Virus record (IMG/VR): IMGVR_UViG_3300048587_001155
Span: 1 to 64,000 of that record
DNA length: 64,000 nucleotides
Reading direction: 5' to 3' (one strand)
Source of the DNA: a virus
The first letter of the stretch is position 1; the number at the start of each line of letters is the position of its first letter. Below are positions 256 to 28,860 of this stretch, one piece after another. Below the pieces are notes generated by a model. It made no database searches. It was not told the DNA's origin and saw only the letters and a program-made list of their open reading frames with translations. Both the position numbers and the translations under genes were made by a program.

Positions 256-2203
256 GCTTCTCACCTTCAAGAGTAAGTGCCAAATCAAAGCATCGTCCGA
301 CGGGAAGCCGCCGCGGATCTCCATCGTCGCCTACAACGGTGGGTTGATAAAGGTGGGCGGATGGGGCCCGCTCGTAACTGATGTTGCCGGCCTTTCAATG
401 AACGCCTCAATCCCGATCCTCATCGATCACAATTCTTCTGTCGATGGGATCGCTGGCCAGGGCGTTGCGACAATCAAAGATGGACGGGTTTTCGTTTCTG
501 GAAACCTCGTTCCGGGCACAGACGGTGCGGACAAAATTACCAAGCTTTCGCGCGCCGGTCACCAATTCCAAGCAAGCATCGGTGTTGAGCCGAGTAGTTA
601 CCGATTCATCAAGGCAGGCGAATCGATCAACGTCAACAATCGCCAAATCAAAGCCGGCAAGGGTGGTTTTATCCTTGTCGAAAAGGGAACACTTCGCGAG
701 GTGAGCGTCGTCGCATTGGGTGCCGACGGTTCCACAAGCGTAACGATTGCCGCCAGGATGGCGAAGAAAAAGGGCAACAGCATGGAGTTTAACGCATTCC
801 TCGAATCGTGCGGTCTACAGGCTTCGGATCTTACCCCGGCGCTAATGACGCGATATCAGGAAATCCACAGTCAGATTGAGGCATCAGGCGACAACGACGT
901 CGACGACGACATTGACAACGAGCTTGTGCAGGCTCGCGAAAGTGCTCGAATCGCCGGAGTCACGAAGATTGCTGAGAAGCACCCGATCATTGCTGCTCGG
1001 GCGGTAGAGGAAGGATGGAATATGAAGCGAACAGAGCTCGAGGTTTTGCGCGCGAGCCGTCCGAAACCTCCAATCGTCCGAGGTTCGAACCATGACGCAG
1101 CCAACACGCCAGACATCCTTGCCGCTGGCTTCCTCATGAAAATGGGTCGTGAGTCGCTCGCCGAAAAGACATTCGGTGAAGCGGTCGCACAACGAGCGCG
1201 TGACCTTCGCGCGAATCACTGCCTTGACCTAGTGAAGGCATCTTTCGAGTTGAACGGCCGAAATGTGCCGCACAACGCGAACGAGATGGTTCACGCCTCT
1301 TTCGGTGCCTCAGGTATTGATTTGCCGGTGGCTCTGGGCAATGTTGCCAACAAGGTTTTGCTCGAAGCCTACAACCTCGCGCCGTCATTCTGGAGGCAAT
1401 TCTGTCGGGTCGGAAGCGTACCTAATTTCAAGCCGGCATCAATGATTGCCCCAAGCTTTCTGGGAAAGCCTGCCAATCTGGGTCACCATGGGGAGTTTGA
1501 GTCTGGACAAGTCAGTGAAGCAGTCGTCACAGGGAGTATTAACACCTACGGCATGGCTCTATCAGTCAGCCGGAGGAACATTATCGACGATGACCTATCG
1601 CTGTTCGATCAGACCGCTTCGGCCCTTGGAAAATCTGCGATGGGTGGGCTCTCTGATCTGGTTATCCAAACGTTGCTTTCGTCGAGTGGATTCTTTACCA
1701 CTGGCAACAAGAATTACATGAGCGGAGCTAGCACCGCACTAGACATTTCGCCTTTGTCCAGTGCTATTACGATGATGAGAAAGCAGCGTGACGCCGACGG
1801 CAGAGATTTAGATATTCAGCCGACGACGTTGCTTGTTACTCCGACATTTGAATTTACGGCACGATCCTGTTTATCTCAGACTCTGGTTGTGTCAGGTAAC
1901 ACAGATGTCACGAAGGGTGCTTCAAACCCGCTCGCAGGGTCTATCAAAAATGTCTCTGTCGAGAGCCGTCTTGAAAACCCGAACTTCACCGGCAACTCAT
2001 CCAATGCTTGGTACCTCTTTGGGCCGGCTGAAGCTGCCGCAATGCACGTATTGTTTCTGAATGGGCAGCAGAGCCCAACCGTCGAGTTCTTTGGGCTTGA
2101 GAGTAACCCCACGAAGCTTGCTCTGATGTGGCGTGTGTACTTCGACTATGGCGCTTGCATGGGTGACTTTCGTGCGGCCGTGAAGTCGAAGGGCGAAGCT
2201 TAA
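248..2203 (+). CDS. Prohead protease-major capsid protein fusion (Mu gpT-like C-terminal capsid domain)
   Basis: N-terminal PILIDH...FQASIG...LREVSVVALGAD prohead-protease motifs; C-terminal YGMALSVSRRNIIDDDL, WYLF...FLNGQQSP, VYFDYG capsid motifs. Confidence 0.85.
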   Translation: MPKLLTFKSKCQIKASSDGKPPRISIVAYNGGLIKVGGWGPLVTDVAGLSMNASIPILIDHNSSVDGIAGQGVATIKDGRVFVSGNLVPGTDGADKITKLSRAGHQFQASIGVEPSSYRFIKAGESINVNNRQIKAGKGGFILVEKGTLREVSVVALGADGSTSVTIAARMAKKKGNSMEFNAFLESCGLQASDLTPALMTRYQEIHSQIEASGDNDVDDDIDNELVQARESARIAGVTKIAEKHPIIAARAVEEGWNMKRTELEVLRASRPKPPIVRGSNHDAANTPDILAAGFLMKMGRESLAEKTFGEAVAQRARDLRANHCLDLVKASFELNGRNVPHNANEMVHASFGASGIDLPVALGNVANKVLLEAYNLAPSFWRQFCRVGSVPNFKPASMIAPSFLGKPANLGHHGEFESGQVSEAVVTGSINTYGMALSVSRRNIIDDDLSLFDQTASALGKSAMGGLSDLVIQTLLSSSGFFTTGNKNYMSGASTALDISPLSSAITMMRKQRDADGRDLDIQPTTLLVTPTFEFTARSCLSQTLVVSGNTDVTKGASNPLAGSIKNVSVESRLENPNFTGNSSNAWYLFGPAEAAAMHVLFLNGQQSPTVEFFGLESNPTKLALMWRVYFDYGACMGDFRAAVKSKGEA

Positions 2204-2212
2204 GTCCTCTTT

Positions 2213-2262
2213 GGGCACGCCGGGAGGGGTCACCTTTCCCCGCACGATGGCCCGGCGTGCCC
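2213..2262. repeat. 12-bp perfect inverted repeat (hairpin) after the capsid gene
   Basis: GGGCACGCCGGG (2213-2224) ... CCCGGCGTGCCC (2251-2262). Confidence 0.7.
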
Positions 2263-2332
2263 ATGCTTCTCATTACCTGAAATTCAAAACCCAGTGAATG
2301 GACTCGCTACCGGTACGCGCAGAGGTTGTGCC

Positions 2333-2569
2333 ATGAATCAGCGATTGATCAACAGTCTCCTAGACGTGTTCTGTTTTCTTCATCCTATTTGGCGGAGTGA
2401 GGTTCACCTTTCCGCCGACGGTCGGTACTCAGCGATTTCACGATCGGCCTTGGTCGCCTTTCTTAACTGGAGTTGCGAAATCGGTGTCTCGCAAACCGAC
2501 GTCGCAGGCCAACACCTTCGGCACGTCCTTGACAACGTTGCTGAGGACGCGGTTATTCCGATCGCCTGA
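2333..2569 (+). CDS. Hypothetical protein
   Basis: ATG preceded by AGAGG; co-oriented with neighbouring genes. Confidence 0.45.
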   Translation: MNQRLINSLLDVFCFLHPIWRSEVHLSADGRYSAISRSALVAFLNWSCEIGVSQTDVAGQHLRHVLDNVAEDAVIPIA

Positions 2570-2590
2570 GAACCTCGAAAGGGAAACGCC

Positions 2591-2917
2591 ATGCTTGACA
2601 CAATTCGCGACGACAGCGGCAAGCAATGGGCCGCTGATCAAGGCTGGCACGTTCGCGCCCGGAACGTTTCAGGCGGTTTCGCATTCTGGCTGAAGCCAGC
2701 AAGAGCGAAGTACCCAGCCAGCATCAGCGCCTATTCAATCGCCGATCGCGCATCACTCAGAGTGACAGTCTTTGACCAGCTTGGCGTTTTCCTCGACGAA
2801 TGGGACCTTGATCAACTGTTCGGGGTCTATCTGCGGAACGGCGAATGGAAGGCAGGATGCCTCAAGGGGCTTTTGGATCGAGCCCTTTTGATCAGCGAAT
2901 CGGAGGGGAAAGGGTGA
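2591..2917 (+). CDS. Hypothetical protein
   Basis: 108-aa ORF with RBS; stop overlaps the primase start (GTGA). Confidence 0.55.
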   Translation: MLDTIRDDSGKQWAADQGWHVRARNVSGGFAFWLKPARAKYPASISAYSIADRASLRVTVFDQLGVFLDEWDLDQLFGVYLRNGEWKAGCLKGLLDRALLISESEGKG

Positions 2918-5157
2918 TTGCATCGGCGATAGATCCGGCCTACCAAATCGTCCTGGAGAGGCTGAGCAACCTAACTCAGACCGATCTTCAGCAATGGACG
3001 TGCAGGTGTCCCGCGCACGAAGACTCGAAAAACTCGCTCGCAGTCTCGATCGGTAATAACGGCGGCATGTTGTTTCATTGCCATGCAGGGTGCCAAACCC
3101 TGAGCATCGTCAACGCCCTTCGTGATGCCAATCTTCGACCAAGCGACATTTTGTTTCCGCTGAATCGTCAGAAAGCGAAAGCGGATTCAGGATCGACGAA
3201 ATTCAATGTCATCGCGACCTATGACTACACTGATGAGCAAGGAAAGTTGCTCTTTCAGGTTTGCAGACTGGATCCCAAGGATTTCCGGCAGCGTCGACCC
3301 GATGGCAATGGATGGGTTTGGAGTATCAAGGGTGTCCGACAAGTCCTTTACCGTCTCCCGTCGATCCTCGCGGCCGATCCCTCAACTCCGATTTTTCTTT
3401 GCGAGGGCGAAAAGGACGTCGACAACGTCACCGCGGTGGGCTTGCTCGCGACTACGAATGCGGGCGGCGCGGCGAAATGGCTACCTGAGTTCAACGAGCA
3501 CTTTCGGGACCGGCACGTTGTCATTCTCCCTGATAACGACGAAGCTGGTGAGAAGCGTACCAAAAAACTCGTCGCCTCGATCCAGCCCATCGCGGCATCA
3601 GTCAAAATCCTGAATCTTTCCGGGCCGTCCATTAAGGACGTCAGCGACTGGCTTGCTGCCGGCGGAACGAAAGAGCAACTCATCGCCCTCGTTGATCAAT
3701 GCGAAGTATGCGAAGCAACCCCACCCAAAGAATACAAACCGAATGAAGCCGACGACGACCCTCACCGGCTCGCGCGATGCTTCGTTCAGAACTGTTATGA
3801 CCATGTGGACCATGCCCGACTTGTCCGCCATCGCGAAGAGTATCACGCATGGAGGGCAGCATCATTCTGCACTGTTGTTCGCGATGATCTGAGTTCCGAT
3901 CTCACAGAATCCATCAAGGACGAATTCGATCGACTGAACGTCTTGGAATTGCAACTTTCAGGCGATGGCGCGGAGAAACCAGAGGCCATGAGAGTTTCAA
4001 AACGACTGATCGGCGATACCCTGAATGCCCTGAACAGCATCATTGCCATTCCGAGCGATATTGAGCCACCCGCATGGCTTGGGGAGGGGCAGCCACCTTT
4101 CCCACTCGAGGAATGCATCTTCACTCAAAACGCGGTTGTACATCTTCCGAGCTACGTTATGGGCCTCAAGGATCATCGTTTCGCGCCGACGCCACTCGTC
4201 TTCAATACGTCGGCTCTCGGATGCGATTTTAACCCGGAAGCCTCACGGCCGGACAACTGGTTTTCTTTCCTCGATTCCATCTGGGGGGACGATGAGGAGT
4301 CAAAGCAGGCATTGCAAGAGTGGATGGGCTATTGCCTCACCAATGACACGAGGCACCAAAAGATCATGCTCGCTGTGGGCCCCAAGCGATCAGGAAAGGG
4401 AACCATCGCGAGGGTTATGACAGCCTTGCTTGGAAAGTCCAACGTTGCTGGGCCGACACTTTCAAGCCTTGCCACCAATTTTGGCCTGTCTCCTCTCATA
4501 GGCAAGCCGCTGGCGATTGTCAGTGACGCACGACTGTCTTCCCGGACCGATGCAGCGACAATCACCGAGCGTCTTCTTTCGATCTCAGGTGAGGACGCCA
4601 TCACTATTGATCGGAAATTCGCCACACCAGTCACCGTGCGGCTTCCTACCCGATTCATGATTCTCACGAACGAGATTCCGAGGCTTGGCGATGCCTCAGG
4701 CGCGCTCGCTTCCCGCTTCGTTATCCTCTCGATGACGAAATCTTGGCTGGGGGCAGAAGACAAGAGGCTTGAAAAGAAGTTGCTCGCTGAACTCTCAAGC
4801 ATCCTGCTTTGGGCAATCCAGGGGTGGGATAACCTCAACAGGCAAGAGCGATTTACCGAGCCGAAAAACTCTCAGCAGATTGTTGAGGAGATGGAAGATC
4901 TCGCAAGTCCAGTCGCAGCGTTCGTGCGGGATTGCTGCAACGTAGGACAAGGCCACAATGTCGCCACGACCGACCTCTACGACGCATGGAAGGACTACTG
5001 CGAGGAACACGGGAAATTGAAGGTGAGCGACGAACGTGTCTTTGGTCGCGACTTGAGAGCGACAACTCCAGAGATCAATAAGGAAAGAATCCGAATAGGT
5101 GGTCACCGCATGATCAGATATCTCGGCATCGGCCTGAGGAATGAGAATGAATACTGA
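2914..5157 (+). CDS. P4-family primase-helicase (Zn finger + TOPRIM + SF3/D5 helicase)
   Basis: CPAHED...HCHAGC zinc finger; EGEKD and DND TOPRIM motifs; GPKRSGKGT Walker A; GTG start at 2914 after GGAGG. Confidence 0.9.
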   Translation: MIASAIDPAYQIVLERLSNLTQTDLQQWTCRCPAHEDSKNSLAVSIGNNGGMLFHCHAGCQTLSIVNALRDANLRPSDILFPLNRQKAKADSGSTKFNVIATYDYTDEQGKLLFQVCRLDPKDFRQRRPDGNGWVWSIKGVRQVLYRLPSILAADPSTPIFLCEGEKDVDNVTAVGLLATTNAGGAAKWLPEFNEHFRDRHVVILPDNDEAGEKRTKKLVASIQPIAASVKILNLSGPSIKDVSDWLAAGGTKEQLIALVDQCEVCEATPPKEYKPNEADDDPHRLARCFVQNCYDHVDHARLVRHREEYHAWRAASFCTVVRDDLSSDLTESIKDEFDRLNVLELQLSGDGAEKPEAMRVSKRLIGDTLNALNSIIAIPSDIEPPAWLGEGQPPFPLEECIFTQNAVVHLPSYVMGLKDHRFAPTPLVFNTSALGCDFNPEASRPDNWFSFLDSIWGDDEESKQALQEWMGYCLTNDTRHQKIMLAVGPKRSGKGTIARVMTALLGKSNVAGPTLSSLATNFGLSPLIGKPLAIVSDARLSSRTDAATITERLLSISGEDAITIDRKFATPVTVRLPTRFMILTNEIPRLGDASGALASRFVILSMTKSWLGAEDKRLEKKLLAELSSILLWAIQGWDNLNRQERFTEPKNSQQIVEEMEDLASPVAAFVRDCCNVGQGHNVATTDLYDAWKDYCEEHGKLKVSDERVFGRDLRATTPEINKERIRIGGHRMIRYLGIGLRNENEY

Positions 5158-9132: not shown

Positions 9133-9185
9133 GTAGGCCTCACCAACCCCGGGCATGGATGCCGCCCAATTCAGGATCGGCAGCG

Positions 9186-10292
9186 ATGGCAAAACGCATC
9201 AAGGTTTGGGTTATGCACTACAAGGGTCTAAAGGACCTTCGTTTGCAATGGATTGACCCGGTCACAGGGAAGCGAAAAACCAAGTCCGCCAAGACTGCCG
9301 ATCCTGAGGTTGCCAAGCAAGCGGCATCCGACCTCGAATACGAACTCAACCACAACCTCTATGACGAGCCGTCAAAGATGCCGTGGGACGATTTCAGGCG
9401 GGTCTACATCGAGGAGAAGTTTGCCGGTGGATCCGAGAACACGATTTCAAAAGCGGAAACCGTGCTCTCGGATTTCGGCACGCGGTCTCATATCAAGACA
9501 ATCGGAGAGGTGACCGAGCGCACCTTTAGCAATTACGCCAGCAAACTTCGAACATTAGGCCGATCCGCGGCTACTATCCACGGGAACATGGCCTACCTCA
9601 AGGCGGCATTCCGCTGGGCCCACGATCAAGCCATCATCGGCCGTATGCCAAAAATCATCATGCCAAAACTTCCCAAGGGCGCGAATAAGGTAAAGGTCCG
9701 CAACGCTGCGAGAATCACCACAGAAGAATTTGAACGACTCCTTTTGAACTGCCCTTCGAACAGTTGGAAACTCCTCGTCGCTTTCGCGTGGCATTGCGGC
9801 ATGCGACGTTGTGAGGCGATGGCGGTTCACGGTGAGCAGATTGACCTTGCCGGGCGGGTGATATCAGTTCCCGACAACAAAGCGAGGAATCAAGCCGCCG
9901 TTGTCGTTATCACCCCCGAGCTATCGGAGATGCTGAAGTCGATGTTCCCGGACGGAATCCCTCATGGGCCGATCGTTCGCCAGATCCCCAAGAGCGATCG
10001 CGAGGTGTCGCGGGACTTCGTTGCCAACATATCGAGCAAGGCACTGGTGAAGGGCAACAGCCGCGCGAATAAGTTCACCGGGTTCGCCACACTTCACGAC
10101 CTCCGCCGGAGCTACGGGACGCGATGGGCCGCGAGGGTTCCAGCACAGATCCTGAAAGAGATGATGCGGCACGCGGACATCAAGACGACGATGGAATTCT
10201 ACGCCGATGCCGAGCAAGCCATGATGGACGCAGTGTGGTCGAAAGAGGCAATTTTGAACAACACAAAGGATCACACAAAGGCAGGCGAGTAA
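9186..10292 (+). CDS. int: Tyrosine recombinase/integrase
   Basis: GMRRCE (R), HDLRR (HxxR), RHAD (H) and FY (Y) catalytic residues; adjacent to the tRNA att fragment. Confidence 0.92.
   Translation: MAKRIKVWVMHYKGLKDLRLQWIDPVTGKRKTKSAKTADPEVAKQAASDLEYELNHNLYDEPSKMPWDDFRRVYIEEKFAGGSENTISKAETVLSDFGTRSHIKTIGEVTERTFSNYASKLRTLGRSAATIHGNMAYLKAAFRWAHDQAIIGRMPKIIMPKLPKGANKVKVRNAARITTEEFERLLLNCPSNSWKLLVAFAWHCGMRRCEAMAVHGEQIDLAGRVISVPDNKARNQAAVVVITPELSEMLKSMFPDGIPHGPIVRQIPKSDREVSRDFVANISSKALVKGNSRANKFTGFATLHDLRRSYGTRWAARVPAQILKEMMRHADIKTTMEFYADAEQAMMDAVWSKEAILNNTKDHTKAGE
10261..10281 (+). repeat. Direct repeat ACACAAAGG x2 (putative integrase arm site, left element)
   Basis: Copies at 10261-10269 and 10273-10281, 12-bp period, about 60 bp from the att core. 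Confidence 0.5.
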
Positions 10293-10338
10293 GTGGGTTG
10301 ATTTGGCTTTGTTAATCGACCTAAGTCTTTACCAGGAG

Positions 10339-10395
10339 CGGAGAGGGGGGGATTCGAACCCCCGGTCCCATTTCTGGAACACAGCATTTCCAGTG
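10339..10395 (-). tRNA. 3' half of tRNA-Ser(GGA); att-site remnant, not an intact tRNA
   Basis: Minus strand carries the anticodon loop CTGGAAA, the 3' anticodon-stem strand TGCTG, a long variable arm, the GGTTCGAATCC T-arm and a CTCTCCG acceptor 3' strand. The D-arm and 5' acceptor strand are absent. Confidence 0.85.
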
Positions 10396-11100: not shown

Positions 11101-11811
11101 ATGGCTGGTTTCAATGAGAAGACTCCAGGGAGCTTTACCATCTGGACCGATGGTGCTTGTATCGACCTGCGATACGGTGGCTGGGCTTTCCTAATTCACG
11201 ATGATCGTGACGGAGAAACGATTTCATCGTCCGATGGAGTCGATCATACGACGAACAATCGAATGGAATTGGCGGCCGTGATCGAAGCGTTGTTGGCGAT
11301 ACCAGAGGGATCGAGGGCGAGAGTTATATCCGACAGTCGTTACGTGGTAAATGGCCTCAACCTTTGGATGAAGAAGTGGGAAAAGTGTGGCTGGAATCGA
11401 AAAGCAACAAAGAAAGACTCCGGCGAGCTTAAGAACAAAGACCTTTGGAAGCGAATTAGCGAGCTCTGCAAGAATCGAAGCGTTGTAGCGTGTTGGGTTA
11501 AAGGACATAACGGGGATCAAGGTAACGAATGGTGCGACCAGCAAGCAACTGAGCGGGCAAGCGAAGTTCTACAAGAAGATCAAAGGTCCCGACTCGGAAA
11601 GCTTCCTGAGGTCGATCCAATGAACGCGACGAGTGTGAGGAATCGCATTCGCTCGAAAGGAGTGACATACGACTTCAACGTCTGTGGCGTCAAAGTTCAG
11701 ACAATCTTTCCAAGGGAATTACACCCCTCCGAAGTTGCTGGATTCGAGCAACTTCTTCAGACCGGCATCAATGACTTGTTGCAGTCGCCATCGCAGGATG
11801 ATCGTTTGTAA
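11101..11811 (+). CDS. RNase HI-family protein with intact catalytic site and a C-terminal extension
   Basis: WTDG, TNNRMEL, ISDSRYV, WVKGH and GNEWCD match the D10/E48/D70/H124/D134 positions of E. coli RNase HI. Confidence 0.9.
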   Translation: MAGFNEKTPGSFTIWTDGACIDLRYGGWAFLIHDDRDGETISSSDGVDHTTNNRMELAAVIEALLAIPEGSRARVISDSRYVVNGLNLWMKKWEKCGWNRKATKKDSGELKNKDLWKRISELCKNRSVVACWVKGHNGDQGNEWCDQQATERASEVLQEDQRSRLGKLPEVDPMNATSVRNRIRSKGVTYDFNVCGVKVQTIFPRELHPSEVAGFEQLLQTGINDLLQSPSQDDRL

Positions 11812-11832
11812 TACAGTCGCGATAACAAAGGA

Positions 11833-12570
11833 ATGTTCGCAATGTCTAGCGATAACGCCATTCATCCCGACTACTCGATTTGGATCTCAGGCTGTTCGCT
11901 TCCGTCTCGCGATGGCGGATGGGCTTTTTTAATTCACACTGAGGTAGACGGCCGCATGTCGTCAGATAGCGGCCATCAAGGCGACACATCACACCATCGA
12001 ATGGAAATGATCGCAGCAATCAATGCACTGAAGATCGTTCCTAGCAACAAACGAGTGACGCTTCATTCTCAAGATCAGTATCTCGTCGATGGAATCAATC
12101 TCTGGATCGATAAGTGGGCTCGAAATGGATGGCAACGAAATGGATCAGACGCAAAGTCATTGCTGAACATCGAGAAATGGAAGGAGATTCATGCCCTCTT
12201 AAACGACAGAGTAACGGCTATCCATGTTTCCGTTGATGATTACGACATACACATTGGGAGCGAGTGGTGTTTCGCGGAAGCTAAGCGTCAAGCTGTATGC
12301 CTTCATTCGAAGCACACCTACCGAAAGAAGAAGGCGCCTCATCCGCCTATTCGACCAACTCATGCCCAGAACAAAGAACACCGCCGGAACGGGAAGTTTC
12401 CCAAGAGGGGAAAGAAGGAACGATTCGGTCAACCGACACTACTGACCGGATTCTTTCCGGACGATCGTCGGATCAATCTCACATTCTCGAAGCGATTAGC
12501 ACCGATCGAAATCGATCGAATCAAGAGGGCCATTGAACAAGCATTGATCGATACCGGTCGTGGCGTTTGA
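11833..12570 (+). CDS. RNase HI-like protein with degenerate active site
   Basis: GGWAFL, HRMEMIAAINAL, YLVDGINLWIDKW; catalytic positions read S/E/Q/F. Confidence 0.8.
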   Translation: MFAMSSDNAIHPDYSIWISGCSLPSRDGGWAFLIHTEVDGRMSSDSGHQGDTSHHRMEMIAAINALKIVPSNKRVTLHSQDQYLVDGINLWIDKWARNGWQRNGSDAKSLLNIEKWKEIHALLNDRVTAIHVSVDDYDIHIGSEWCFAEAKRQAVCLHSKHTYRKKKAPHPPIRPTHAQNKEHRRNGKFPKRGKKERFGQPTLLTGFFPDDRRINLTFSKRLAPIEIDRIKRAIEQALIDTGRGV

Positions 12571-12676
12571 TCGACTGACAGCTCCATGTCAATCACTCGG
12601 AGACAGGGCAATTTACCAATCTCCACATTAGATACCTAAGCCGCACGCGCTCGGCGTGCAACGAAAGGAGCACATC

Positions 12677-13402
12677 ATGATTCAGGAGCACAACAACTCA
12701 GTCATGATCTGGGTCGGTGCAGTTGCATTGAAACAAGGATTTGGAGGTTGGGCATTCTTGCTTCAGAGGAAGGAGACCGGTCTGATCGAGTCCGGATTCG
12801 GCCGGAGTGTTGACACGACGAAGTACCGCATGGCACTTGAAGCAGCGTGCCAGGCTGTCAGCCGATGTAAGCAAAACGACGTCATAACCATCGTGTCTGA
12901 TCTCACCTACCTTGTTAATGGAATCGAAGCCGGTCTTCGTCGAAAGACTATCGCAGGCGAAGAGGATAACGTCGATCTCTGGAAACGCCTCTTAATTGGA
13001 GCAAACTCTCGAGAAGTAAAAGCCCTTTGGACGCGAGATTATTCTGTTCGCGCTAATCGCTGGTGCAACATACAGGCAAAGCGGTCGGCGCAAAGTCTTC
13101 GGGACGGAAGGTCAGTGCCATCAAGTCTTCCACTTCCAGAGTCCAAGTGCATCGATCAAGACAAGATGGCAGCATTTGCATCCGAGCTGAAGCGAACCAA
13201 CTGCGTTCCGCAAGTTATGGAATGCTTGGAAATATCAGCTCTCTCGTTCGACGGTGATTTGATCTCAATCGAACTATCGCGTGATCCCTCTGGAACCGAG
13301 AAGTTCAAGCTTGAGAGAGCGGTCAAGAAGGCGATTCGATCAATGGCTGTCAAGCAAGAGAGGATTAACTCGCGTCCGGCAAAAAAGAATCGACCTCGCT
13401 GA
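12677..13402 (+). CDS. RNase HI-like protein with degenerate active site
   Basis: GGWAFL, YRMALEAA, VSDLTYLVNG, NVDLWKRL, NRWCN; catalytic positions read G/A/D/N. Confidence 0.78.
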   Translation: MIQEHNNSVMIWVGAVALKQGFGGWAFLLQRKETGLIESGFGRSVDTTKYRMALEAACQAVSRCKQNDVITIVSDLTYLVNGIEAGLRRKTIAGEEDNVDLWKRLLIGANSREVKALWTRDYSVRANRWCNIQAKRSAQSLRDGRSVPSSLPLPESKCIDQDKMAAFASELKRTNCVPQVMECLEISALSFDGDLISIELSRDPSGTEKFKLERAVKKAIRSMAVKQERINSRPAKKNRPR

Positions 13403-13463
13403 GAGACCCGTTCACACACAGGGAGATTGTTGAAAGTTTCGATAGATAACTGAGGATCTCGCA

Positions 13464-14402
13464 ATGGAAGAATCTGATTGGCTCGTCGAGGCGAAGGGAA
13501 GTTGCTCTAGCGTTTCCGGCGGACCGGGAGCATGGCGTGTTCGAGTACTCGAGAAGACTAATGGACGACACGAAGAGCAAAGCGGAAACAGTTCGAATAC
13601 ATCTCCGCTCGAGATGGAGCTGACTGCGGCATTGAACGGGCTTCGAATGATACCGAAACGAGGATCGGTGACGCTTATGGTTCGGAACCCGATCATCGTA
13701 AATGTTTTGCGAGGAAGCGAACTGCCATCGAAGCACAATGATTTGTGGAGATGCATTCAAGCGGAGTCATTGCCAAGAAGTGTCAACGCTGTAACAGTTC
13801 GCAATTTCGTCGAGATCGACCGCGCGATCGAGCAACGAAACAAGAAGGAGCAGAGAGAGAAAGCGAGGATGTCTTCGACGTCGGAACTCGAGACTCTGCC
13901 ACTCTTCGACCACGACATCACGATCTACACGAACGGCGCAAACTCCAATAAAGTTTGCGGGTGGGCATTTCTACTTCACAACAAGCGTACTGGTGAGATG
14001 GAGACCGGCGCCGGTTCGATTCGTCAAACAAATGTGAATCGGATGAAGCATCTGGCGATAGTAGAAGGACTCAAACGAGCTCCGCAGAATGGGCGGATCC
14101 GGGTTCTCACCGACATGAAATATCTCGCTGACGGAATTACTTACAAGATAGATGTGTGGCATAGCTGGGGATGGCGCAAGTCAGCGAACGGTTGTGTTGA
14201 ACGGCCGAACCCCGATCTTTGGGAAGACGTTTGGCAATCCAAGAGGGTGAGCGACGTTCGAGTTGACTGGGTGCGAAGTAACACCGGGATCGAAGGGCAA
14301 GATTGGTGCGCAACAGAAGCTACTCGACAGGTGGATATCGCTCTTAGAAAGCGAGCAGGAGAGCAGGCCGAACTACCTCGTTTGGATTCGACTCAGCCAT
14401 GA
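13464..14402 (+). CDS. Two-domain RNase HI-like protein, both domains degenerate
   Basis: Domain 1: GGPGAW, EMELTAALNGL, HNDLW. Domain 2: IYTNG, GWAFL, NRMKHLAIVEGL, LTDMKYLADG, NPDLW, DWCATEA. Confidence 0.78.
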   Translation: MEESDWLVEAKGSCSSVSGGPGAWRVRVLEKTNGRHEEQSGNSSNTSPLEMELTAALNGLRMIPKRGSVTLMVRNPIIVNVLRGSELPSKHNDLWRCIQAESLPRSVNAVTVRNFVEIDRAIEQRNKKEQREKARMSSTSELETLPLFDHDITIYTNGANSNKVCGWAFLLHNKRTGEMETGAGSIRQTNVNRMKHLAIVEGLKRAPQNGRIRVLTDMKYLADGITYKIDVWHSWGWRKSANGCVERPNPDLWEDVWQSKRVSDVRVDWVRSNTGIEGQDWCATEATRQVDIALRKRAGEQAELPRLDSTQP

Positions 14403-14794: not shown

Positions 14795-16117
14795 ATGATG
14801 AAATCAGATGAACAGTTAAGCAGCGCTCAAGTTACGACTCCCTTGCGGGTGATCGAACTTTTTTGGCGTCTACTGAGACATCGTCGGCCTGCTATTGGGC
14901 ATGTCCTCGACATGGGGGCGGGCGATGGACGATTCGCGAAAGCCGGGGAATTCAGATCATACTTGGGAATAGAAATCGATCCGACAAGATCGAGGCATGC
15001 AAAGATCCCGAAGAACGCCAAAATTATAAGAGGCTGTGCGTTCAAGCATTCAGGCAGAGGTTATGATGCCTGCATTGGTAATCCTCCTTATGTCCGACAT
15101 CACGATATCGAGGGGAGTTGGAAACAGCGAACACTCCAAAGTCTTTCAAAATCGCTCGGAGTGAAGCTAGATTGTCGTTTCAATCTTTACCTCTACTTCA
15201 TGTGCCTCGGTCTCCTGCGCACTGCTCACGATGGGATATTGGCAGTCGTCGTTCCGCACGAATGGATTGGCCGTCCATCATCGCGTCCACTTCGCGAGTA
15301 CATTAGCAAACAATCGTGGGACGTAGATGTCTATCGGTTCACTCAGCCCATTTTCGAAGGAGTCCTGACGACTGCTTCGATCACATTCATTGATAAGTCA
15401 TCATCATCCGGCTCGTGGCGACACTATGATCTTTCGAATAACTTCGAAATGAATCCGAGGCCGATTCCTCGAAAATCTGTTCCTCAAATCCTCCCGTACG
15501 AACGCCGGGGAAAAATTTGGGCTATTCGCGGCCTGAGTCCCGGGTCACAGCGTTTCTTCGTTCTGACGGAGGGGGAACGAATTCACAACGGACTCAGGAA
15601 GTCGGACGTAGTTCCATGCGTGACGTCAATGTCTTCTATGCCGTCCGAAGTTGCCACATTATCGGTAAGTGCATTCAAAAAACACTTTGTGAACGCTGGC
15701 GAAAAATGTTGGTTGATAAAATCGCACTCAGAGAGCCCTAGCGATTCATTGGCCGCGTACCTTGGGACCGTTCCAGCTGGGATTCGATCAAACTTCACCT
15801 GCTCATCTCGCACCGTCTGGCATCAATTCCGTATGCCGAAACCTCCGGACATCCTGGTGAGCTCAGGATTCGTTTCGTTTGGACCTAAGGTAGTCGTGAA
15901 TGAAATTGGCGCGATTGGGATCGGAACTATTCATGGCGTGCACGGGGTCCCAAAGTCCAAACGGATCGGTTTGCGAAATTTCTTAGTGTCAACGAACTTT
16001 GAAAAACAGATTATTCCACATGCAAACACGTTGAAGAAAATCGAAGTTCGCCAGCTTAACGCAGCTCTCAATCGATATTCCACAGAGGTGAATAGAAATG
16101 CCGCGCGTCCTCTCTGA
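14795..16117 (+). CDS. N6-adenine DNA methyltransferase (gamma class)
   Basis: LDMGAGDGRF (motif I) followed by GNPPYVR (motif IV); C-terminal TRD-like region. Confidence 0.88.
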   Translation: MMKSDEQLSSAQVTTPLRVIELFWRLLRHRRPAIGHVLDMGAGDGRFAKAGEFRSYLGIEIDPTRSRHAKIPKNAKIIRGCAFKHSGRGYDACIGNPPYVRHHDIEGSWKQRTLQSLSKSLGVKLDCRFNLYLYFMCLGLLRTAHDGILAVVVPHEWIGRPSSRPLREYISKQSWDVDVYRFTQPIFEGVLTTASITFIDKSSSSGSWRHYDLSNNFEMNPRPIPRKSVPQILPYERRGKIWAIRGLSPGSQRFFVLTEGERIHNGLRKSDVVPCVTSMSSMPSEVATLSVSAFKKHFVNAGEKCWLIKSHSESPSDSLAAYLGTVPAGIRSNFTCSSRTVWHQFRMPKPPDILVSSGFVSFGPKVVVNEIGAIGIGTIHGVHGVPKSKRIGLRNFLVSTNFEKQIIPHANTLKKIEVRQLNAALNRYSTEVNRNAARPL

Positions 16118-18320
16118 GCAAGATATTCCGTTTCAAACCGAAGGACGCTTGCTGCAAGAGCTAGGGCTGCGACTCGTCGCTAGTCCGCAGGTCGCACTTG
16201 TCGAACTCATTAAAAACGCTTACGACGCCGATTCGCCAATATGCGATGTTCGGTTAGAGGGCCAGAGAACGCTGATCGTTGAAGATCACGGAAGCGGTAT
16301 GACGCTTGACGATTTTCGAAACAGATGGATGCGAATCGCGACATCTGACAAGGCGACTCTTGCTACGTCGCCGAGGTTCAAACGTCCGCTCACTGGCGCA
16401 AAAGGTATTGGCAGATTCGCCGTGAGATTTCTGGGGAATCATCTCCATCTGACGTCAGTTGCATACGACAAGAGTCGAAAACTCCTCACTCAACTTGACG
16501 CCGATTTCAATTGGACCGCTCTCGATCGAGAAAGAGACATCTCTCACGCAGTTGTTCATTGCAAATTGATTGCAGCACCAGCCGGCGCACAAACGGGAAC
16601 CGTATTGCGAATTAGCTCTTTACGACAAGAAGTCGACTTTGCCCGCGACCAGTCCTTACGATCGGATGTCCTCCAAATCGTCACGCCTTTGCAGGGGTTG
16701 GATCGCGGTAAATTTGCGACGGAAAATGGAGTAGGAAGCGCCGATCCTGGATTCAAGGTAACACTTCCCGGTACCGATTCAGACGAGAATCTCGACCTCG
16801 CAGAACTCGTATTGAATAACTATTGGGCAAGATTGACTGTCGAACTTGTTGGAGCGCGTCTCAAGATAAAGGTGCACCTACACGAGTCTGGTGAAACGAG
16901 CGAACTAAATCTGCGTGTCGCAAGCGTCATCTCCAAAGGTTTCTTTGCCGATATCCGTTACTTCCCGCGTCGCAAGGGAGTTTTTAGCCAAAAGGGTATT
17001 GATGGACGGAAGGCATGGAACTGGGTTCGAACGAACTGCGGTATTAAAGTCGTTGACCACGGCTTTCATATTCATCCATATGGATTCAAAAAGGACGACT
17101 GGCTGCATCTTGATCATGATACGTCACACAATGAGCGGCAATGGAGCACACGAATTGCCCAAGAGCATTTTCCGATTAACCAGCTGATTCAGAAAGACCC
17201 GGCCATTAACCCTGCTCTGAATCTCGCATCAAATTTTCAGGTAGTTGGCGCCGTATTTATTGAGACAGCTCGTGACGCAGGAAATAAAGATGTAATCGAT
17301 TTATTACCTGCAATGGATCGCGAGGGCTTACTCGAAAATCAGGCTTTCCTTCAGTTAGTTGAATTCGTGAGGAGTGGGCTTGAATTTCTTGCGCATGTTG
17401 ACAAGCGTGCTCTCTTGAAGAAGCTAGAAATGGATGCGAAGCTTGCGGCCAAGTCGGCCCGGAAAGACATCCAGCAAGCAATCTCCCATATTCGTAATAG
17501 TCCGACACTGACATCTGCCGACAAATCGAGGATTGTCAAGCAATACGCATCGCTCGCTGCGCAAGTCGAGAAACAAGAGGAGTATTCTCAGCAAGCGCGC
17601 AGAGGCCTCGTTACCATGGGGCTGCTCGGCGTTGTTGCTGGATTTATGACGCATGAAAGTCGCGCAATACTTCATGATCTAGAATTAACCGTTTTGGCCA
17701 TACAACGACTGGCAAAGAAGGATCGATCACTCCAGAAGGACGCGGATCAGCTCGAGCATCGTCTAAACACATTTCGCGGGTATCTCGACTATTCTCGTTT
17801 ATTCATTCAAAGTGCACGGGTTCTACGCGATGAACCTCTAGCCGTTGCTAGCCAAATTCGCCGAATTATTGCGAACTTTGGCTCTGTTGCCAAAGATCGG
17901 GGCATCAAAGTGAGTATTGATGTGGATGAATCTGTAAAGACACCTCCGCTGCCGGTAACTGCTTACAGTGGCATCTTGCTGAATCTTTTTACCAATGCGG
18001 TGAAAGGAATTCTTGCAGCGGCCGGTAGCACTCCGAAGCCACTGATCAGCTTTCGATCGTGGAATGAACAGGATCGACATATCGTTGAAGTTGCTGACAA
18101 CGGTATTGGTATTCCACCGGAATTGAGACGAAGAGTGTTTGATCCTCTTTTCACCACCACTTCGGATGTCGGCAACCCGCTTGGATCCGGAATGGGCTTG
18201 GGCTTAACATTAGTCGAACAGGTTGTACGCGAATTTGAAGGAAGGATAACCCTTCTGGAAGTTCCGCCTCCGGGATTCAGCACGTGTTTTCGAGTCGTCT
18301 TTCCGAGGAAAGATAAATGA
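16098..18320 (+). CDS. GHKL (MORC/MutL-like) ATPase fused to a histidine kinase
   Basis: N-terminal ELIKNAYDAD, DHGSGM, GAKGIGRFA; C-terminal FMTHE H-box, NLFTNA, DNGIGI, FDPLFTT, GSGMGLGL. Confidence 0.88.
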   Translation: MPRVLSEQDIPFQTEGRLLQELGLRLVASPQVALVELIKNAYDADSPICDVRLEGQRTLIVEDHGSGMTLDDFRNRWMRIATSDKATLATSPRFKRPLTGAKGIGRFAVRFLGNHLHLTSVAYDKSRKLLTQLDADFNWTALDRERDISHAVVHCKLIAAPAGAQTGTVLRISSLRQEVDFARDQSLRSDVLQIVTPLQGLDRGKFATENGVGSADPGFKVTLPGTDSDENLDLAELVLNNYWARLTVELVGARLKIKVHLHESGETSELNLRVASVISKGFFADIRYFPRRKGVFSQKGIDGRKAWNWVRTNCGIKVVDHGFHIHPYGFKKDDWLHLDHDTSHNERQWSTRIAQEHFPINQLIQKDPAINPALNLASNFQVVGAVFIETARDAGNKDVIDLLPAMDREGLLENQAFLQLVEFVRSGLEFLAHVDKRALLKKLEMDAKLAAKSARKDIQQAISHIRNSPTLTSADKSRIVKQYASLAAQVEKQEEYSQQARRGLVTMGLLGVVAGFMTHESRAILHDLELTVLAIQRLAKKDRSLQKDADQLEHRLNTFRGYLDYSRLFIQSARVLRDEPLAVASQIRRIIANFGSVAKDRGIKVSIDVDESVKTPPLPVTAYSGILLNLFTNAVKGILAAAGSTPKPLISFRSWNEQDRHIVEVADNGIGIPPELRRRVFDPLFTTTSDVGNPLGSGMGLGLTLVEQVVREFEGRITLLEVPPPGFSTCFRVVFPRKDK

Positions 18321-19399
18321 AAAGTCTGAATATACTTCTCTTCGATGACGTGGAAGAGAATCTGCGTGAGGTTCAAGATCTTATTTCAAAAGAGCTTGGC
18401 GTTAAAGGGAAGGTGGAAGCATATCCTCTTGTTCGGAGAGAAACCTCTAAGCTGGGCGACCCGGAGCCATTCGAAGACATCATCGAGCGCGAGCTCAGGA
18501 AGCGTGCGGAGCCGGTCAGCCTAATAGTCGCAGACCGAGATCTATCGCGAGCCACAGATTACCGTGGACTGTCAGAACCAACCGTTCGCCGCGCCGCAGA
18601 ACGACTTGCGATACCGGAATGTGGCTATGCACGCGGTGAATCCGGGGACGCTATCTCATATTTGGATATTGGCGAGAAGAGAGAGGAGTGTATTCGCCTT
18701 AGCCTCACTCCCCAAGATGTGTTCGCTCGGAAGGTGGTCGACATCGCCGAAGGATTCGAATGGATGAAGGAGCAGGTCCCAAATGTAATGCAAAAGATGA
18801 AAGGCAGACAACCATCTCCGGCAAAGATACTCGCCGAATTGTTGGGAGTGCCCGATCAAGTTGAGAAAATTTCCCTCTTTGCTGTGGGCGATAAAAATCG
18901 ATTGGGTGACATCCCCAGACTTGGAAAATCTTCTTCAGACGAGAGAGCACGGAGGCTCGCCTATCTCTTGGGTTATTGGCTGTGGGACTCTGTCTTATTT
19001 TTTCCTGGGCTTGTAGTAAATGAAATAGCCGCATCAAGTTACTTGAATATCAGCGTAGAAGAGTTCAGAAAAAAGGATGTAGCAAGTTTATTCTCCGCGG
19101 CCAAATACTTGGGTCCGTTCTCCTACGCGAGAGGGCCTCTCTGGTGGCGCGGTAGGCTTGATTCACTACTCGGTGATTTCGAAGACGGAAACTCTCTAGC
19201 GACGACGAACCTCGGTCGAGAAGTCGCACCATGCTTATGCTCCGTAGATCCTTCGATACAGGCGGGCTTCGTTTGCGTACTGTCAAACAAACCTGTTAGT
19301 AGCAAAAACTCAACAGGCAAATTGCTTTGGTTGCCCCGAGGCGCCGATTTGGCTCGGGTGAGTCGCACGATGATCGATGAGTTTGGTCCATGGCTGTAG
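18317..19399 (+). CDS. Response-regulator receiver domain protein with uncharacterised C-terminal domain
   Basis: ILLFDD and LIVADRDL receiver motifs; translationally coupled (ATGA) to the kinase. Confidence 0.7.
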   Translation: MKSLNILLFDDVEENLREVQDLISKELGVKGKVEAYPLVRRETSKLGDPEPFEDIIERELRKRAEPVSLIVADRDLSRATDYRGLSEPTVRRAAERLAIPECGYARGESGDAISYLDIGEKREECIRLSLTPQDVFARKVVDIAEGFEWMKEQVPNVMQKMKGRQPSPAKILAELLGVPDQVEKISLFAVGDKNRLGDIPRLGKSSSDERARRLAYLLGYWLWDSVLFFPGLVVNEIAASSYLNISVEEFRKKDVASLFSAAKYLGPFSYARGPLWWRGRLDSLLGDFEDGNSLATTNLGREVAPCLCSVDPSIQAGFVCVLSNKPVSSKNSTGKLLWLPRGADLARVSRTMIDEFGPWL

Positions 19400-19409
19400 A
19401 GAACGAGAT

Positions 19410-20105
19410 ATGTCACAATTTCCAGGACAAGCCCGGTATGCGGATCTCATTGCTTCATTCACTCGACACCTTCAGACTCCCTGTGGAATGATCGACATCT
19501 TTCCTAGATCCGAAGCTGAATGGTTTAGGTCTACCCAAAAGACGGCTTCACTTTCGGAATGGAAGTTCGAAATCGTAATGCACCTTCCGCGATGGAAGGC
19601 CAGGAGAAAGGAAGTTTATATTATCCTTCATGCAACCGAGACCATACAGCGAAGGTCTGGCGGGGCTGCGATAGTGACGAAATCCACCGTGCGCCTTTCA
19701 TATTGCGATGTTGAAGAAGAGTGCGAGCTCCTCCATTCAATTCACTATGACTTTGACAAAATAGTAGAAAAGCATCCTCTGTTCCATGCACAGGTAACGA
19801 ATGAAGCTCCTTCATTACCCGATGTAGCTCAACAGGAACTCGAGATCATTCTTCCAAAGCCGCGTTCTCCGCTTTTTAAATTTGCACGAATTCCAACTTC
19901 CGACATGACTCTCCCTTCGGCACTTTTGTGCTTAGCGGCAGATCATTGCGGAGACCAGGAAGCGTTTGACGCATTCCGCGAAAAGGTTATGTCACTTCGC
20001 GAGAAAATGCATTACGCCGATGCGTCGATGATTACGAATCATGTAAGTGGATCAAAATTACCAATTCTTTGTAGCTCGGTTTGGTTCGGAAAGTCGCCTG
20101 AGTAG
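19410..20105 (+). CDS. Hypothetical protein (HYDFD...HPLFHAQ...RIP motif, DUF2290-like)
   Basis: Last gene of the operon; His-containing motif recalls DUF2290-type proteins (from memory, unverified). Confidence 0.55.
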   Translation: MSQFPGQARYADLIASFTRHLQTPCGMIDIFPRSEAEWFRSTQKTASLSEWKFEIVMHLPRWKARRKEVYIILHATETIQRRSGGAAIVTKSTVRLSYCDVEEECELLHSIHYDFDKIVEKHPLFHAQVTNEAPSLPDVAQQELEIILPKPRSPLFKFARIPTSDMTLPSALLCLAADHCGDQEAFDAFREKVMSLREKMHYADASMITNHVSGSKLPILCSSVWFGKSPE

Positions 20106-20285
20106 CTGTTACGCGGCGATTTGAGGTCAAGCATCACTTGGAGTACAGACGAGGTGGTGAACCTAAGCAAGTTTCAGATGGAAGACAACGACTAATCGTC
20201 GAGTCTGCTGAGTTCACCCATTTCCGTTTGGTAAACCAAGCGCAGATATCGAGACTGAGTTAAGGTGAATTGACTGTTTGATCTT

Positions 20286-20326
20286 GGCCGGCGGTTTTGT
20301 GCATGGCCCGTCGGTCTCTTTTTTTT
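20286..20326 (+). terminator. Intrinsic terminator
   Basis: GGCCGGCGG...CCGTCGGTC stem followed by a T8 run. Confidence 0.55.
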
Positions 20327-20406
20327 AAGCTACGTTTCGTGAGCCCCGATCGGCATGGGCGAACGATGCGGGGGCGCAATCCTAGCTCATGTCGATTCGG
20401 GGTCTA

Positions 20407-20640
20407 CTACTTTGGCCGGTTCAAGCTCTGGAAGATGGCAAGCGCATCCTCAGCTTCCTGGCCGTGCAGATAGTGAGATTCCCCGCCACGATCCGGCGAA
20501 CTGCCGACAACAACCTCGAGTATCTTCTCTTCTTCGTCGAATTCGGCCTCGCGGATAAAAGCCGTGTTGATGAACTTCAGCTTGCGGGTCAGCCCGTTGA
20601 GTCCCTGCTCAGTCCTCGTGAACTTGATGAATGGCGGCAT
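20407..20640 (-). CDS. Small hypothetical protein
   Basis: 77 aa, GGAGG RBS upstream, protein-like composition. Confidence 0.5.
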   Translation of the reverse strand: MPPFIKFTRTEQGLNGLTRKLKFINTAFIREAEFDEEEKILEVVVGSSPDRGGESHYLHGQEAEDALAIFQSLNRPK

Positions 20641-20892
20641 CGAATCCTCCCGTCGAGTTCTGTGATTTCTGACGGAATAACCGAATGAAGAGCGGATTTC
20701 GAGAGCATTCTGGACTACATTGGTGCATCGTTTGGGTTAGGCCGGCGGGTTATGGGACTCCGGATCCGCCGGCCGTTTTACCCTCCGAAAACCCGGAATT
20801 CCACCTGTTGCGACTGATTCGACTTTTCTAAACTCCGTTCATTGGCTTCGGGTTGGACCCAAGCGTTATCGCTACTTCATGATGGAGGAGCC

Positions 20893-22128
20893 ATGCCACG
20901 TCAAACTACGACATATCGCGTATTAATTGCGTCACCTTCGGATTGTGAAGAAGAACGAAGATTAGTTCCAGAAGTCATAAGTGACTGGGTTGATGGCCAT
21001 TCGTTGTCGCTCGATATCACCGTATTGCCTGTCAAATGGGAGACGAATTCGGTCCCAGAATTAGGAGAGAAGGGCGCTCGGCCACAGGGAATAATCAACA
21101 GTCAACTTATCAAAGACTCCGATATTCTTGTCGCGATCTTTTGGAGCCGCCTCGGAACTCCGACAGGAAAAGCAGATTCCGGTACGATCGAAGAAATCGA
21201 GGAATTCCGAAAGGCCGGCAGACCGGTTCTCGTCTACTTTTCCCAAAAACCGGTACCAAACAATGTCGATACATCTCAGCTCGAAAAGCTTCGCGAATAC
21301 CGCGAACAAATTCGGCACGAAGGAATTTGTTTTGATTATCATTCGCTCGAGAATCTGCGAAACCTTCTATCCAAGCACTTAAACAGAGTGATCACCGAGC
21401 TTCATGAAGTCCATAAGCTGAGTCTCAAAAATCCTGTTAACGCAGAACCTATGGACGAGAGGCTAAAACGCTTTCGTGAATTCGCAGACGAGTTCGACTC
21501 TTTTCTTCGTGGATTCGAACTGAAATGGCACGCCGAACAAGAGGTCAGGCAGATCAATTTAAACAACGGAAAATCCCATTTATTAAGTGCGTATGATCAC
21601 GTTCACACATTGACCAGCCGCATCAAGTTTGGGTTAGATGAGATCAAAGAGCCATTGAAAGAAATATTAGTGAAGATTCGACAATTGCAGGACCATCACC
21701 TATTCGCGGACGGTGGCAGATCCATGGCTGAGTTCTGGGAACATGGCAATGAGATCATCAAAGACTTGCATGGCATATCCGGCAAAATCCGTGTACTGGA
21801 AAGACGATTGCTAGAACCTCAATCTGAAATCCCGCCCAATGCGCATCCCAATGACAGAGGCGTATCATTGTCAGAGCTTGCGGCAGAAATCATTCGTGAG
21901 GCGGTGAAAGATAAGAACGGAATGATTTTGGCGTATGGCCTGTTGGATGGCTGGCATGTGGCCACTAATCAACTCGACTTTGTTGAACCTGATGATCCTC
22001 GAAGTGAAGCAAAAGCACGCGCCGCGATAAAAGAACTTCAAGCAAATGGTTTAATCGAGCAGCGCGGAAAAGAGTCGTACGGAGTCACAGCGGCTGGCTT
22101 TGACTGGACCGACAAACAAAATCCCTGA
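20893..22128 (+). CDS. DUF4062 (TIR/DRHyd-like) domain protein with C-terminal winged helix
   Basis: RVLIASPSDCEEER, KWE, PQGIIN, FWSRLGTPTG, SGTIEE; C-terminal AIKELQANGLIE...YGVTAAGF; GGAGGAG RBS. Confidence 0.75.
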   Translation: MPRQTTTYRVLIASPSDCEEERRLVPEVISDWVDGHSLSLDITVLPVKWETNSVPELGEKGARPQGIINSQLIKDSDILVAIFWSRLGTPTGKADSGTIEEIEEFRKAGRPVLVYFSQKPVPNNVDTSQLEKLREYREQIRHEGICFDYHSLENLRNLLSKHLNRVITELHEVHKLSLKNPVNAEPMDERLKRFREFADEFDSFLRGFELKWHAEQEVRQINLNNGKSHLLSAYDHVHTLTSRIKFGLDEIKEPLKEILVKIRQLQDHHLFADGGRSMAEFWEHGNEIIKDLHGISGKIRVLERRLLEPQSEIPPNAHPNDRGVSLSELAAEIIREAVKDKNGMILAYGLLDGWHVATNQLDFVEPDDPRSEAKARAAIKELQANGLIEQRGKESYGVTAAGFDWTDKQNP

Positions 22129-22132
22129 TGAA

Positions 22133-22157
22133 CTAAATTTAGCTCCCTCACTAAACC
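22133..22157 (+). repeat. 25-bp direct repeat, copy 1
   Basis: CTAAATTTAGCTCCCTCACTAAACC; 23/25 identical to 24169-24193. Confidence 0.8.
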
Positions 22158-24168: not shown

Positions 24169-24193
24169 CTAAATTTAGCTCCGTCGCTAAACC
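24169..24193 (+). repeat. 25-bp direct repeat, copy 2
   Basis: CTAAATTTAGCTCCGTCGCTAAACC. Confidence 0.8.
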
Positions 24194-28802: not shown

Positions 28803-28860
28803 CCTGGATGCCAAATGACTGTGACACTTACCAATGAAGAGAAAGCGTGAGGTAATCCAC

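Follow-up and report, generated by a model that had tools for sequence, protein, structure and literature searches.

A provirus carries one intact ribonuclease HI beside four catalytically dead RNase HI domains that appear to be retained as pseudo-enzymes

The 64,000-nt stretch of viral DNA analyzed here, hereafter the window, comprises positions 1-64,000 of record IMGVR_UViG_3300048587_001155, a 76.5-kb IMG/VR provirus. Between 11101 and 14402 it carries four consecutive plus-strand open reading frames (ORFs) that form a ribonuclease HI (RNase HI) array. Together the four encode five RNase HI domains, of which only that of ORF1 is predicted to be catalytically competent, and the data support the view that the remaining copies, in ORF2, ORF3, and ORF4, are retained pseudo-enzymes rather than decaying pseudogenes. 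The open frames, which lie between 11068 and 14402, span 247, 245, 248, and 312 codons, and the likely ATG starts at 11101, 11842, 12677, and 13464 each stand 7-10 nt downstream of AAGGA, AAGGAG, or GAGGA. The gaps between the genes are 30-106 nt. The features of the array are as follows.

11101-11811, + strand: ORF1, 236 aa; intact RNase HI; Pfam 127.5 bits; AAGGA 8 nt before the ATG; alternative TTG start at 11068
11659-11811, + strand: module at the ORF1 C terminus, with two short strands plus an amphipathic helix; from an alignment of the ORF1-3 tails
11842-12570, + strand: ORF2, 242 aa; predicted dead RNase HI, S-E-Q-D-F; Pfam 54.4 bits; alternative ATG at 11833
12677-13402, + strand: ORF3, 241 aa; predicted dead RNase HI, G-A-D-Y-N; Pfam 31.2 bits; alternative GTG start at 12656
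13464-13877, + strand: ORF4 N-terminal domain (ORF4-N), residues 1-138; shortened, predicted dead RNase H fold, K-E-R; from our own profile and AlphaFold2
13905-14402, + strand: ORF4 C-terminal domain (ORF4-C), residues 148-312; predicted dead RNase HI, N-K-D-N-A; Pfam 57.9 bits

All four proteins exceed the Pfam PF00075 RNase_H cut-off of 25.8 bits, with the scores listed above, and all four match PHROG 531 (RNase H), ORF4 in two stretches. ORF4-N was missed by Pfam and was found, over residues 10-75, by a hidden Markov model (HMM) that we built from 38 single-domain hits (E value of 8e-10), which it matches along the first half of the RNase H domain. The presence of five RNase HI domains in four co-oriented ORFs, proposed in a first-pass annotation of this DNA, was thus borne out by Pfam, PHROG, our HMM, and AlphaFold2. 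Alignment with MAFFT and the HMM places, in the D10/E48/D70/H124/D134 columns, DEDHD for ORF1, SEQDF for ORF2, GADYN for ORF3, KER-- for ORF4-N, and NKDNA for ORF4-C. The catalytic tetrad with His124 is therefore complete in ORF1 only and is absent as a full set from the other four domains, as the annotation had also stated; its residue assignments hold throughout except in the D70 column of ORF4-N, where both alignments give R and not the neighboring N. The catalytic residues of ORF1 are D17, E56, D78, H136, and D146, and the protein also harbors the basic protrusion and a C-terminal extension of about 70 aa; its homologs at 83% and 85% identity retain all three features. The Trp-rich basic protrusion is likewise kept in ORF2 and ORF4-C and is gone from ORF3 and ORF4-N. 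The dead proteins are basic, with isoelectric points (pI) of 9.0-9.7, and the sequence matches of ORF2 in the PDB are the Chlorobium and Escherichia coli RNases HI. Judged by their sequences, ORF1 is an intact and presumably working RNase HI and ORF2, ORF3, and ORF4 are predicted pseudo-enzymes, with the fold and without cutting.

Structure predictions agree with these assignments. The AlphaFold2 model of ORF3 has an RNase HI fold (predicted local distance difference test, pLDDT, of 85) and matches E. coli RNase HI in Foldseek with a template modeling (TM) score, by target, of 0.75. The ORF4 model (mean pLDDT of 88) contains two RNase H folds, and its Foldseek matches also include E. coli RNase HI; in ORF4-N three strands, a helix, a strand, two helices, a strand, and a helix are predicted, with a pLDDT of 86-97 and no basic protrusion. 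The two-domain model of ORF4 further aligns, over 334 columns, to BFVD entry A0A481ZDV3, a 306-aa "Ribonuclease H" of Pithovirus LCPAC404, and by this model a double RNase H protein may be encoded by a giant virus as well. A C-terminal module is common to ORF1, ORF2 (about 12439-12570, where it follows the domain and a basic linker), and ORF3 (about 13157-13402). In the ORF3 model this tail is composed of two helices (168-180 and 185-190), followed by a beta hairpin (193-207) and a further, long helix (213-239), with a pLDDT of 70-90. The module belongs to no Pfam family, and an Atlas search returned no usable feature match, with structure rows at TM scores below 0.5 by query; it is nearly invariant in the near relative of ORF3 (P0168) and conserved in P0171 and P0172.

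Comparison with near relatives indicates constraint on the dead copies. In a search of 5.8 billion protein clusters each dead paralog has one near relative, all of them on a single 12.7-kb Logan contig that also encodes an ORF1 homolog. Identities to the contig's proteins, with zero gaps, are 196/235 for ORF1 (P0172), 138/164 for the ORF2 domain (P0004), 216/241 for ORF3 (P0168), and 271/305 for ORF4 (P0001), the last made up of 138 of 147 residues in the N-domain and 129 of 152 in the C-domain. These gap-free identities are 84-90% for the dead copies compared with 83% for the active ORF1, so that conservation of the dead copies equals or exceeds that of the enzyme. The substituted "catalytic" residues of ORF2 and ORF3 are the same in the relative, and the catalytic columns of ORF4-C, N-K-D-N-A in the window and N-K-D-G-E in P0001, differ only at the H124 and D134 equivalents. 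Wastewater and sludge sequencing runs, which yielded short contigs of low depth, contain the same strain and in addition a third variant of ORF4-C, with 44 differences over 13995-14356; no RNA run is listed among those that contain the sequence. For this pair the Nei-Gojobori method (NG86), applied to 13995-14354 with 40 of the 44 differences listed, gave 18.75 synonymous differences over 82 sites and 21.25 non-synonymous differences over 278 sites. The resulting ratio of non-synonymous to synonymous rates (dN/dS) is 0.30 (binomial p of 5e-4, or 2e-3 if the four unlisted differences were all non-synonymous) and points to purifying selection on ORF4-C, in a small sample of one domain. The three variants of ORF4-C (window, P0001, and sludge contigs) differ in clustered surface patches within 14120-14322, and the motifs between these patches (WHSWGWRKS, DLWED, and VDWVRS..GIEGQDWC) are invariant. 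Collectively, the ribosome-binding sites of the individual genes, the open frames, the gap-free conservation, and the dN/dS of about 0.3 argue that these are maintained genes, in line with the first-pass annotation, which had read them as retained rather than decaying. A sequencing artefact or a string of pseudogenes, considered as a further explanation, was rejected in view of the per-ORF ribosome-binding sites and the gap-free conservation.

A live and a dead RNase HI domain occur together outside this array as well. In a set of 156 proteins, made up of the best hits to ORF2 and the proteins of this locus, 72 have more than one RNase H domain (two or three), in most cases a DEDHD domain together with a dead one. 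The typical fused form is about 300 aa long, with one intact and one dead domain (examples are P0006, P0013, and P0026), and in a 20-member alignment (A2) the dead domain retains the protrusion Trp and Gly residues. Three-domain forms (P0005, P0007, and P0086) and forms with two live domains (P0009, P0173, and P0010 from Tritrichomonas) also occur, and proteins with two live domains are found among the close relatives of ORF1 too. In two metagenome-assembled genomes (MAGs), one from Anaerolineae (L006:5980-6888) and one from Acidobacteriota (L007:5986-6897), the fused gene is the sole PF00075 locus, and its neighbors are ordinary genes, such as those for a MazG-methylase, a dehydrogenase E1 component, and PolX. 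In the literature searched, no paper describes a fused live-plus-dead bacterial RNase HI, and a search for a solved two-domain structure found none; these fusions are apparently a widespread, undescribed family. The array of the window is not part of this class, as ORF1 has a single domain and ORF4 two dead ones.

We tentatively favor a reading, possible rather than probable, in which ORF1 is a catalytic subunit and the dead copies are its noncatalytic pseudo-enzyme partners. The dead copies would grip the RNA:DNA hybrid or the flanking duplex, or would scaffold ORF1; the hairpin-helix C-terminal module common to ORF1-3 may join the proteins, and ORF2 and ORF4-C would additionally use the substrate-gripping basic protrusion that they retain. 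By analogy, such a partnership would resemble that of the dead domain in the fused proteins and that of the retroviral "connection" domain. Since the fused live-plus-dead proteins are widespread and lie in ordinary chromosomal surroundings, a role as accessory subunit seems preferable to one specifically as immune sensor. Assembly, hybrid binding, and any role in element replication or phage-host conflict are features that we infer, and the complex could serve element replication, R-loop control, defense, or counter-defense. Joint folding of ORF1 with ORF2 lends weak support, with a score of 0.50 (0.60, 0.01, and 0.50 in the individual runs) compared with 0.23 for the best control; contact agreement between the runs is at least 29%, and the partner pLDDT is at least 62. 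Among solved complexes, 58 of 80 reached the mark used for this test, as did 2 of 110 mismatched pairs, and passing scores of 0.60 or under came from only 7 of the 80 solved complexes and from both passing mismatches.

The simplest origin of the array is an old local duplication. The paralogs of the window are 21-40% identical to one another, and free trees of 57-225 RNase H domains were poorly resolved, with long branches. When the five domains and their relatives were held as one clade, the arrangement was not rejected (p-AU, by the approximately unbiased test, of 0.94) and stood 49.6 log-likelihood units above a quick free tree. In addition, four of the domains share a Trp-Cys pair before the last catalytic position (EWCD, EWCF, RWCN, and DWCA), which was found in only 18 of 370 domains, 13 of these 18 being from this locus or its near relatives. 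The unrejected clade and the rarity of Trp-Cys elsewhere make it plausible, from sequence evidence, that the array arose by old local duplication of one RNase HI gene. The first-pass annotation had suggested the same from shared motifs, all of them present as it stated. GWAFL, which occurs in four of the five domains, was rejected as a duplication marker, since it is common among the relatives sampled and not diagnostic.

The five-domain array is rare, as surveys of phages, plasmids, and Chloroflexota genomes show mostly single RNase HI places. Searches with ORF1 matched 1671 of 50,697 phage records, each with exactly one RNase HI place, and 742 plasmid records, with 749 places in all. Of 151 Chloroflexota genomes, sampled instead of the host lineage, 126 match, mostly once and never more than three times, and none has three or more places side by side; two unpublished genomes in this sample (G041 and G134) have one match each, and the result is the same without them. 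A locus search based on ORF4 found none in the viral and genome collections, and a locus search of viral contigs with the ORF1 alignment gave one distant single match (L086). The full set was seen on two contigs only, with ORF1 alone on a third. Recurrence in other islands, for which the annotation had suggested a search, was not found in these locus searches or among the protein clusters, each dead paralog having its one near relative. Searches of the literature for tandem or dead bacterial RNases HI turned up only the dual RNase H of retroelements, RNase E, and a 2007 paper on redundancy.

Several observations weigh against maintained partners for ORF1. The dN/dS is based on 120 codons of one domain, ORF4-C. 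The ORF2 of the relative (P0004) shifts frame in a AAGAAGAAG run, at about 12320-12335, and its product terminates in the reading frame of an alternative ORF of the window, 12224-12445, losing the C-terminal module; the change could be due to slippage, to an error in assembly, or to a true frameshift, and because the module was lost, either it is not strictly needed or the relative is decaying. An ORF1 homolog in an NCBI MAG (MBX9654921.1, 85% identical, on an 11.2-kb contig) was returned from NCBI without homologs of ORF3 or ORF4, which may reflect a contig end. Long-branch attraction between the fast-evolving dead domains can also affect the clade test. The predicted ORF1-ORF2 complex is weak, with one of three runs at 0.01, and ORF3 and ORF4-N, for lack of the basic protrusion, may be altogether unable to bind hybrid.

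Some of these points would fit an alternative in which ORF1 alone matters, for example in primer or R-loop removal during element replication, and ORF2-4 are functionless duplicates in slow decay. The extreme rarity of the set, the frameshifted ORF2 of the relative, and the long branches and lost protrusion of ORF3 and ORF4-N are consistent with such decay, and multiple and inactive bacterial RNase HI genes have been interpreted as recent redundancy (PMC1950709). However, at 21-40% identity between the paralogs, unselected divergence would have put stops and indels into frames of 245-312 codons. All four genes have instead kept their ribosome-binding sites, the dead copies are free of gaps and at least as conserved as ORF1, ORF4-C has a dN/dS of about 0.3, and AlphaFold2 gives confident folded domains for the dead copies. 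We regard slow decay as improbable.

The setting of the array is that of an integrated mobile element, of which it is the outermost cargo. Upstream of it lies one further feature, outside the operon.

about 10339-10395, - strand: tRNA-Ser(GGA)-like fragment, from the anticodon loop to the 3' end; remnant of an attachment (att) site

The fragment was recognized from partial T-arm and antisense-trnS matches and by direct reading of the sequence; ARAGORN, and Rfam at its gathering score, found no tRNA here, Rfam at that score gave zero matches in the window, and neither the window nor the rest of the 76.5-kb record holds a tRNA gene. Many unrelated metagenome contigs match the fragment over 10334-10376 only and diverge on both sides. 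The 3' fragment of tRNA-Ser marks the junction of two tandemly integrated elements, with the integrase at 9159-10292 belonging to the left element, on the 3' side of the fragment. As the orientation of the fragment places the left element 3' and the array-bearing element 5', the array is the att-proximal cargo of the right-hand element. The earlier description of it as the first cargo inside a tRNA att site therefore holds for its place at the att-proximal end, the site itself being a tRNA-Ser 3' fragment and not a tRNA gene. From about 10 to 22 kb the GC content is 0.49-0.52, compared with 0.55-0.59 elsewhere. A simple scan for sigma-70 promoters and terminators gave site counts no higher than in shuffled sequence. 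Among named RNase HI proteins the nearest are those of Planctomycetota MAGs, which suggests Planctomycetota as the host phylum; the host is probably a wastewater member of this phylum.

Downstream of the array, 14795-22128 encodes an Eco57I-like methyltransferase with weak mad2-like and type II PADLOC matches, a protein of 740 aa that has two GHKL ATPase domains, two genes without family, and a gene like PDC-S60, a candidate defense family (E value of 8.5e-30); no recognizable restriction nuclease was found in this stretch. The methyltransferase and GHKL neighbors named in the annotation are thus real, and a 393-nt gap separates ORF4 from the methyltransferase gene. A 25-bp direct repeat (22133-22157 and 24169-24193, 23/25 identical) flanks about 2 kb with two genes without family. 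Farther right of the array stretch are phage-like genes for a portal, a virion protein, and a serine recombinase (PHROG), the last at 28834-30129, within the right-hand element, with matches to DNA invertase/integrase PHROGs. The left element is compact and satellite-like; left of its integrase, within 248-5157, it encodes a 651-aa protein whose C-terminal half carries a phage capsid domain, as well as a 770-aa Toprim/DUF5906/D5-like primase-helicase.

This neighborhood bears on a second alternative, drawn from the first-pass annotation, in which the dead paralogs act independently of ORF1 as hybrid or R-loop binders or decoys in phage-host conflict, whether as sensors for a methyltransferase/GHKL effector, R-loop shields, or decoys for RNase H inhibitors. 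A low-GC accessory stretch beside an att remnant, with a mad2-like/type II methyltransferase, a double-GHKL protein, and a PDC-S60-like gene nearby, speaks for this alternative. The retained protrusion of ORF2 and ORF4-C, the pI of 9.0-9.7, the constraint on the dead copies, and the variable ORF4-C surface patch between invariant motifs in three variants are also compatible with it. In contrast, PADLOC-DB 2.0 holds zero families matching ORF1-4 at E <= 0.01, with only the neighbors matching (MTase_II/mad2-like and PDC-S60), the paralogs do not recur in other islands, and the record contains no reverse transcriptase. The 393-nt gap further sets ORF4 apart from the methyltransferase gene, and the fused live-plus-dead forms occur in housekeeping contexts. 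Independent action of the dead paralogs seems unlikely, though not far-fetched.

The first-pass annotation had also noted the absence of a reverse transcriptase, and this extends to the whole 76.5-kb record, which has no PF00078 match; an accessory role for a retron or a defense-associated reverse transcriptase (DRT) was rejected on this ground. A more ambitious version of the partnership, a heteromeric RNase H machine whose dead, hybrid- or R-loop-sensing subunits steer or gate the live one and which the prophage deploys in phage-host conflict (in defense against hybrid-needing elements, or in counter-defense against R-loop-forming or reverse transcriptase-based immunity), strikes us as a long shot. 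PADLOC on ORF1-4 and the reverse transcriptase search of the record found no tie to defense, counter-defense, retrons, or CRISPR, and a defense or counter-defense role is not supported, being backed neither by conservation nor by matches to known systems.

RNase HI is usually regarded as a lone, monomeric housekeeping enzyme, and here a mobile element keeps four dead copies of it beside a live one. Taken together with the live-plus-dead fusions, which are widespread and sometimes the sole RNase HI, the retention of the array's dead copies suggests that bacterial RNase H is repeatedly built with pseudo-enzyme partners, in an apparently undescribed manner that would parallel the retroviral connection domain. 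The most useful by-product of the analysis is that fusion family itself. If the dead domains bind hybrids, they would be natural R-loop binders, a model for the tuning of RNase H substrate choice, and possibly a new player in phage-host conflict.

Comparison of the array with bacterial RNase HI (rnhA; E. coli 1rnh/2rn2 and Chlorobium tepidum 3h08) reveals that all five domains have the same fold and that ORF1 also has the D-E-D-D residues, His124, and the protrusion. However, the catalytic residues are missing from four of the five domains here, an additional C-terminal module of about 40-70 aa, of no known family, is present in ORF1-3, and the array is an operon carried by a mobile element, in contrast to the single chromosomal gene of bacteria. 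Several RNase HI genes can be present in one bacterial genome, some without nuclease activity (Kochiwa et al. 2007, PMC1950709); these are scattered single genes, and that paper describes no operon in which one live and four dead domains are encoded in the same orientation. A dual RNase H, in which a degenerate "connection/tether" domain accompanies a live RNase H, is found in retroviruses and some Ty3/Gypsy elements (PMC9040795). The ORF4 model aligns over 305-341 columns to the connection and RNase H domains of foamy-virus and HIV-1 reverse transcriptases, but the high root-mean-square deviation (13-15 Å) indicates that the orientation of the two domains is not shared. The array also differs in that it has no reverse transcriptase, both ORF4 domains are dead, and there is no sequence kinship beyond the fold.

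The fused live-plus-dead RNase HI proteins of MAGs and metagenomes (L006, L007, and A2) similarly pair a DEDHD domain with a dead one that keeps the protrusion Trp and Gly residues. They are single polypeptides, in housekeeping surroundings and the sole locus where checked, whereas the array comprises separate genes with four dead domains on a mobile element, and its domains can be constrained to a separate clade instead of grouping with the fused forms. In eukaryotic RNase H1, the hybrid-binding domain is a noncatalytic module that holds on to the hybrid and thereby assists the catalytic domain; its fold is unrelated, and the dead domains of the array would resemble it by functional analogy only.

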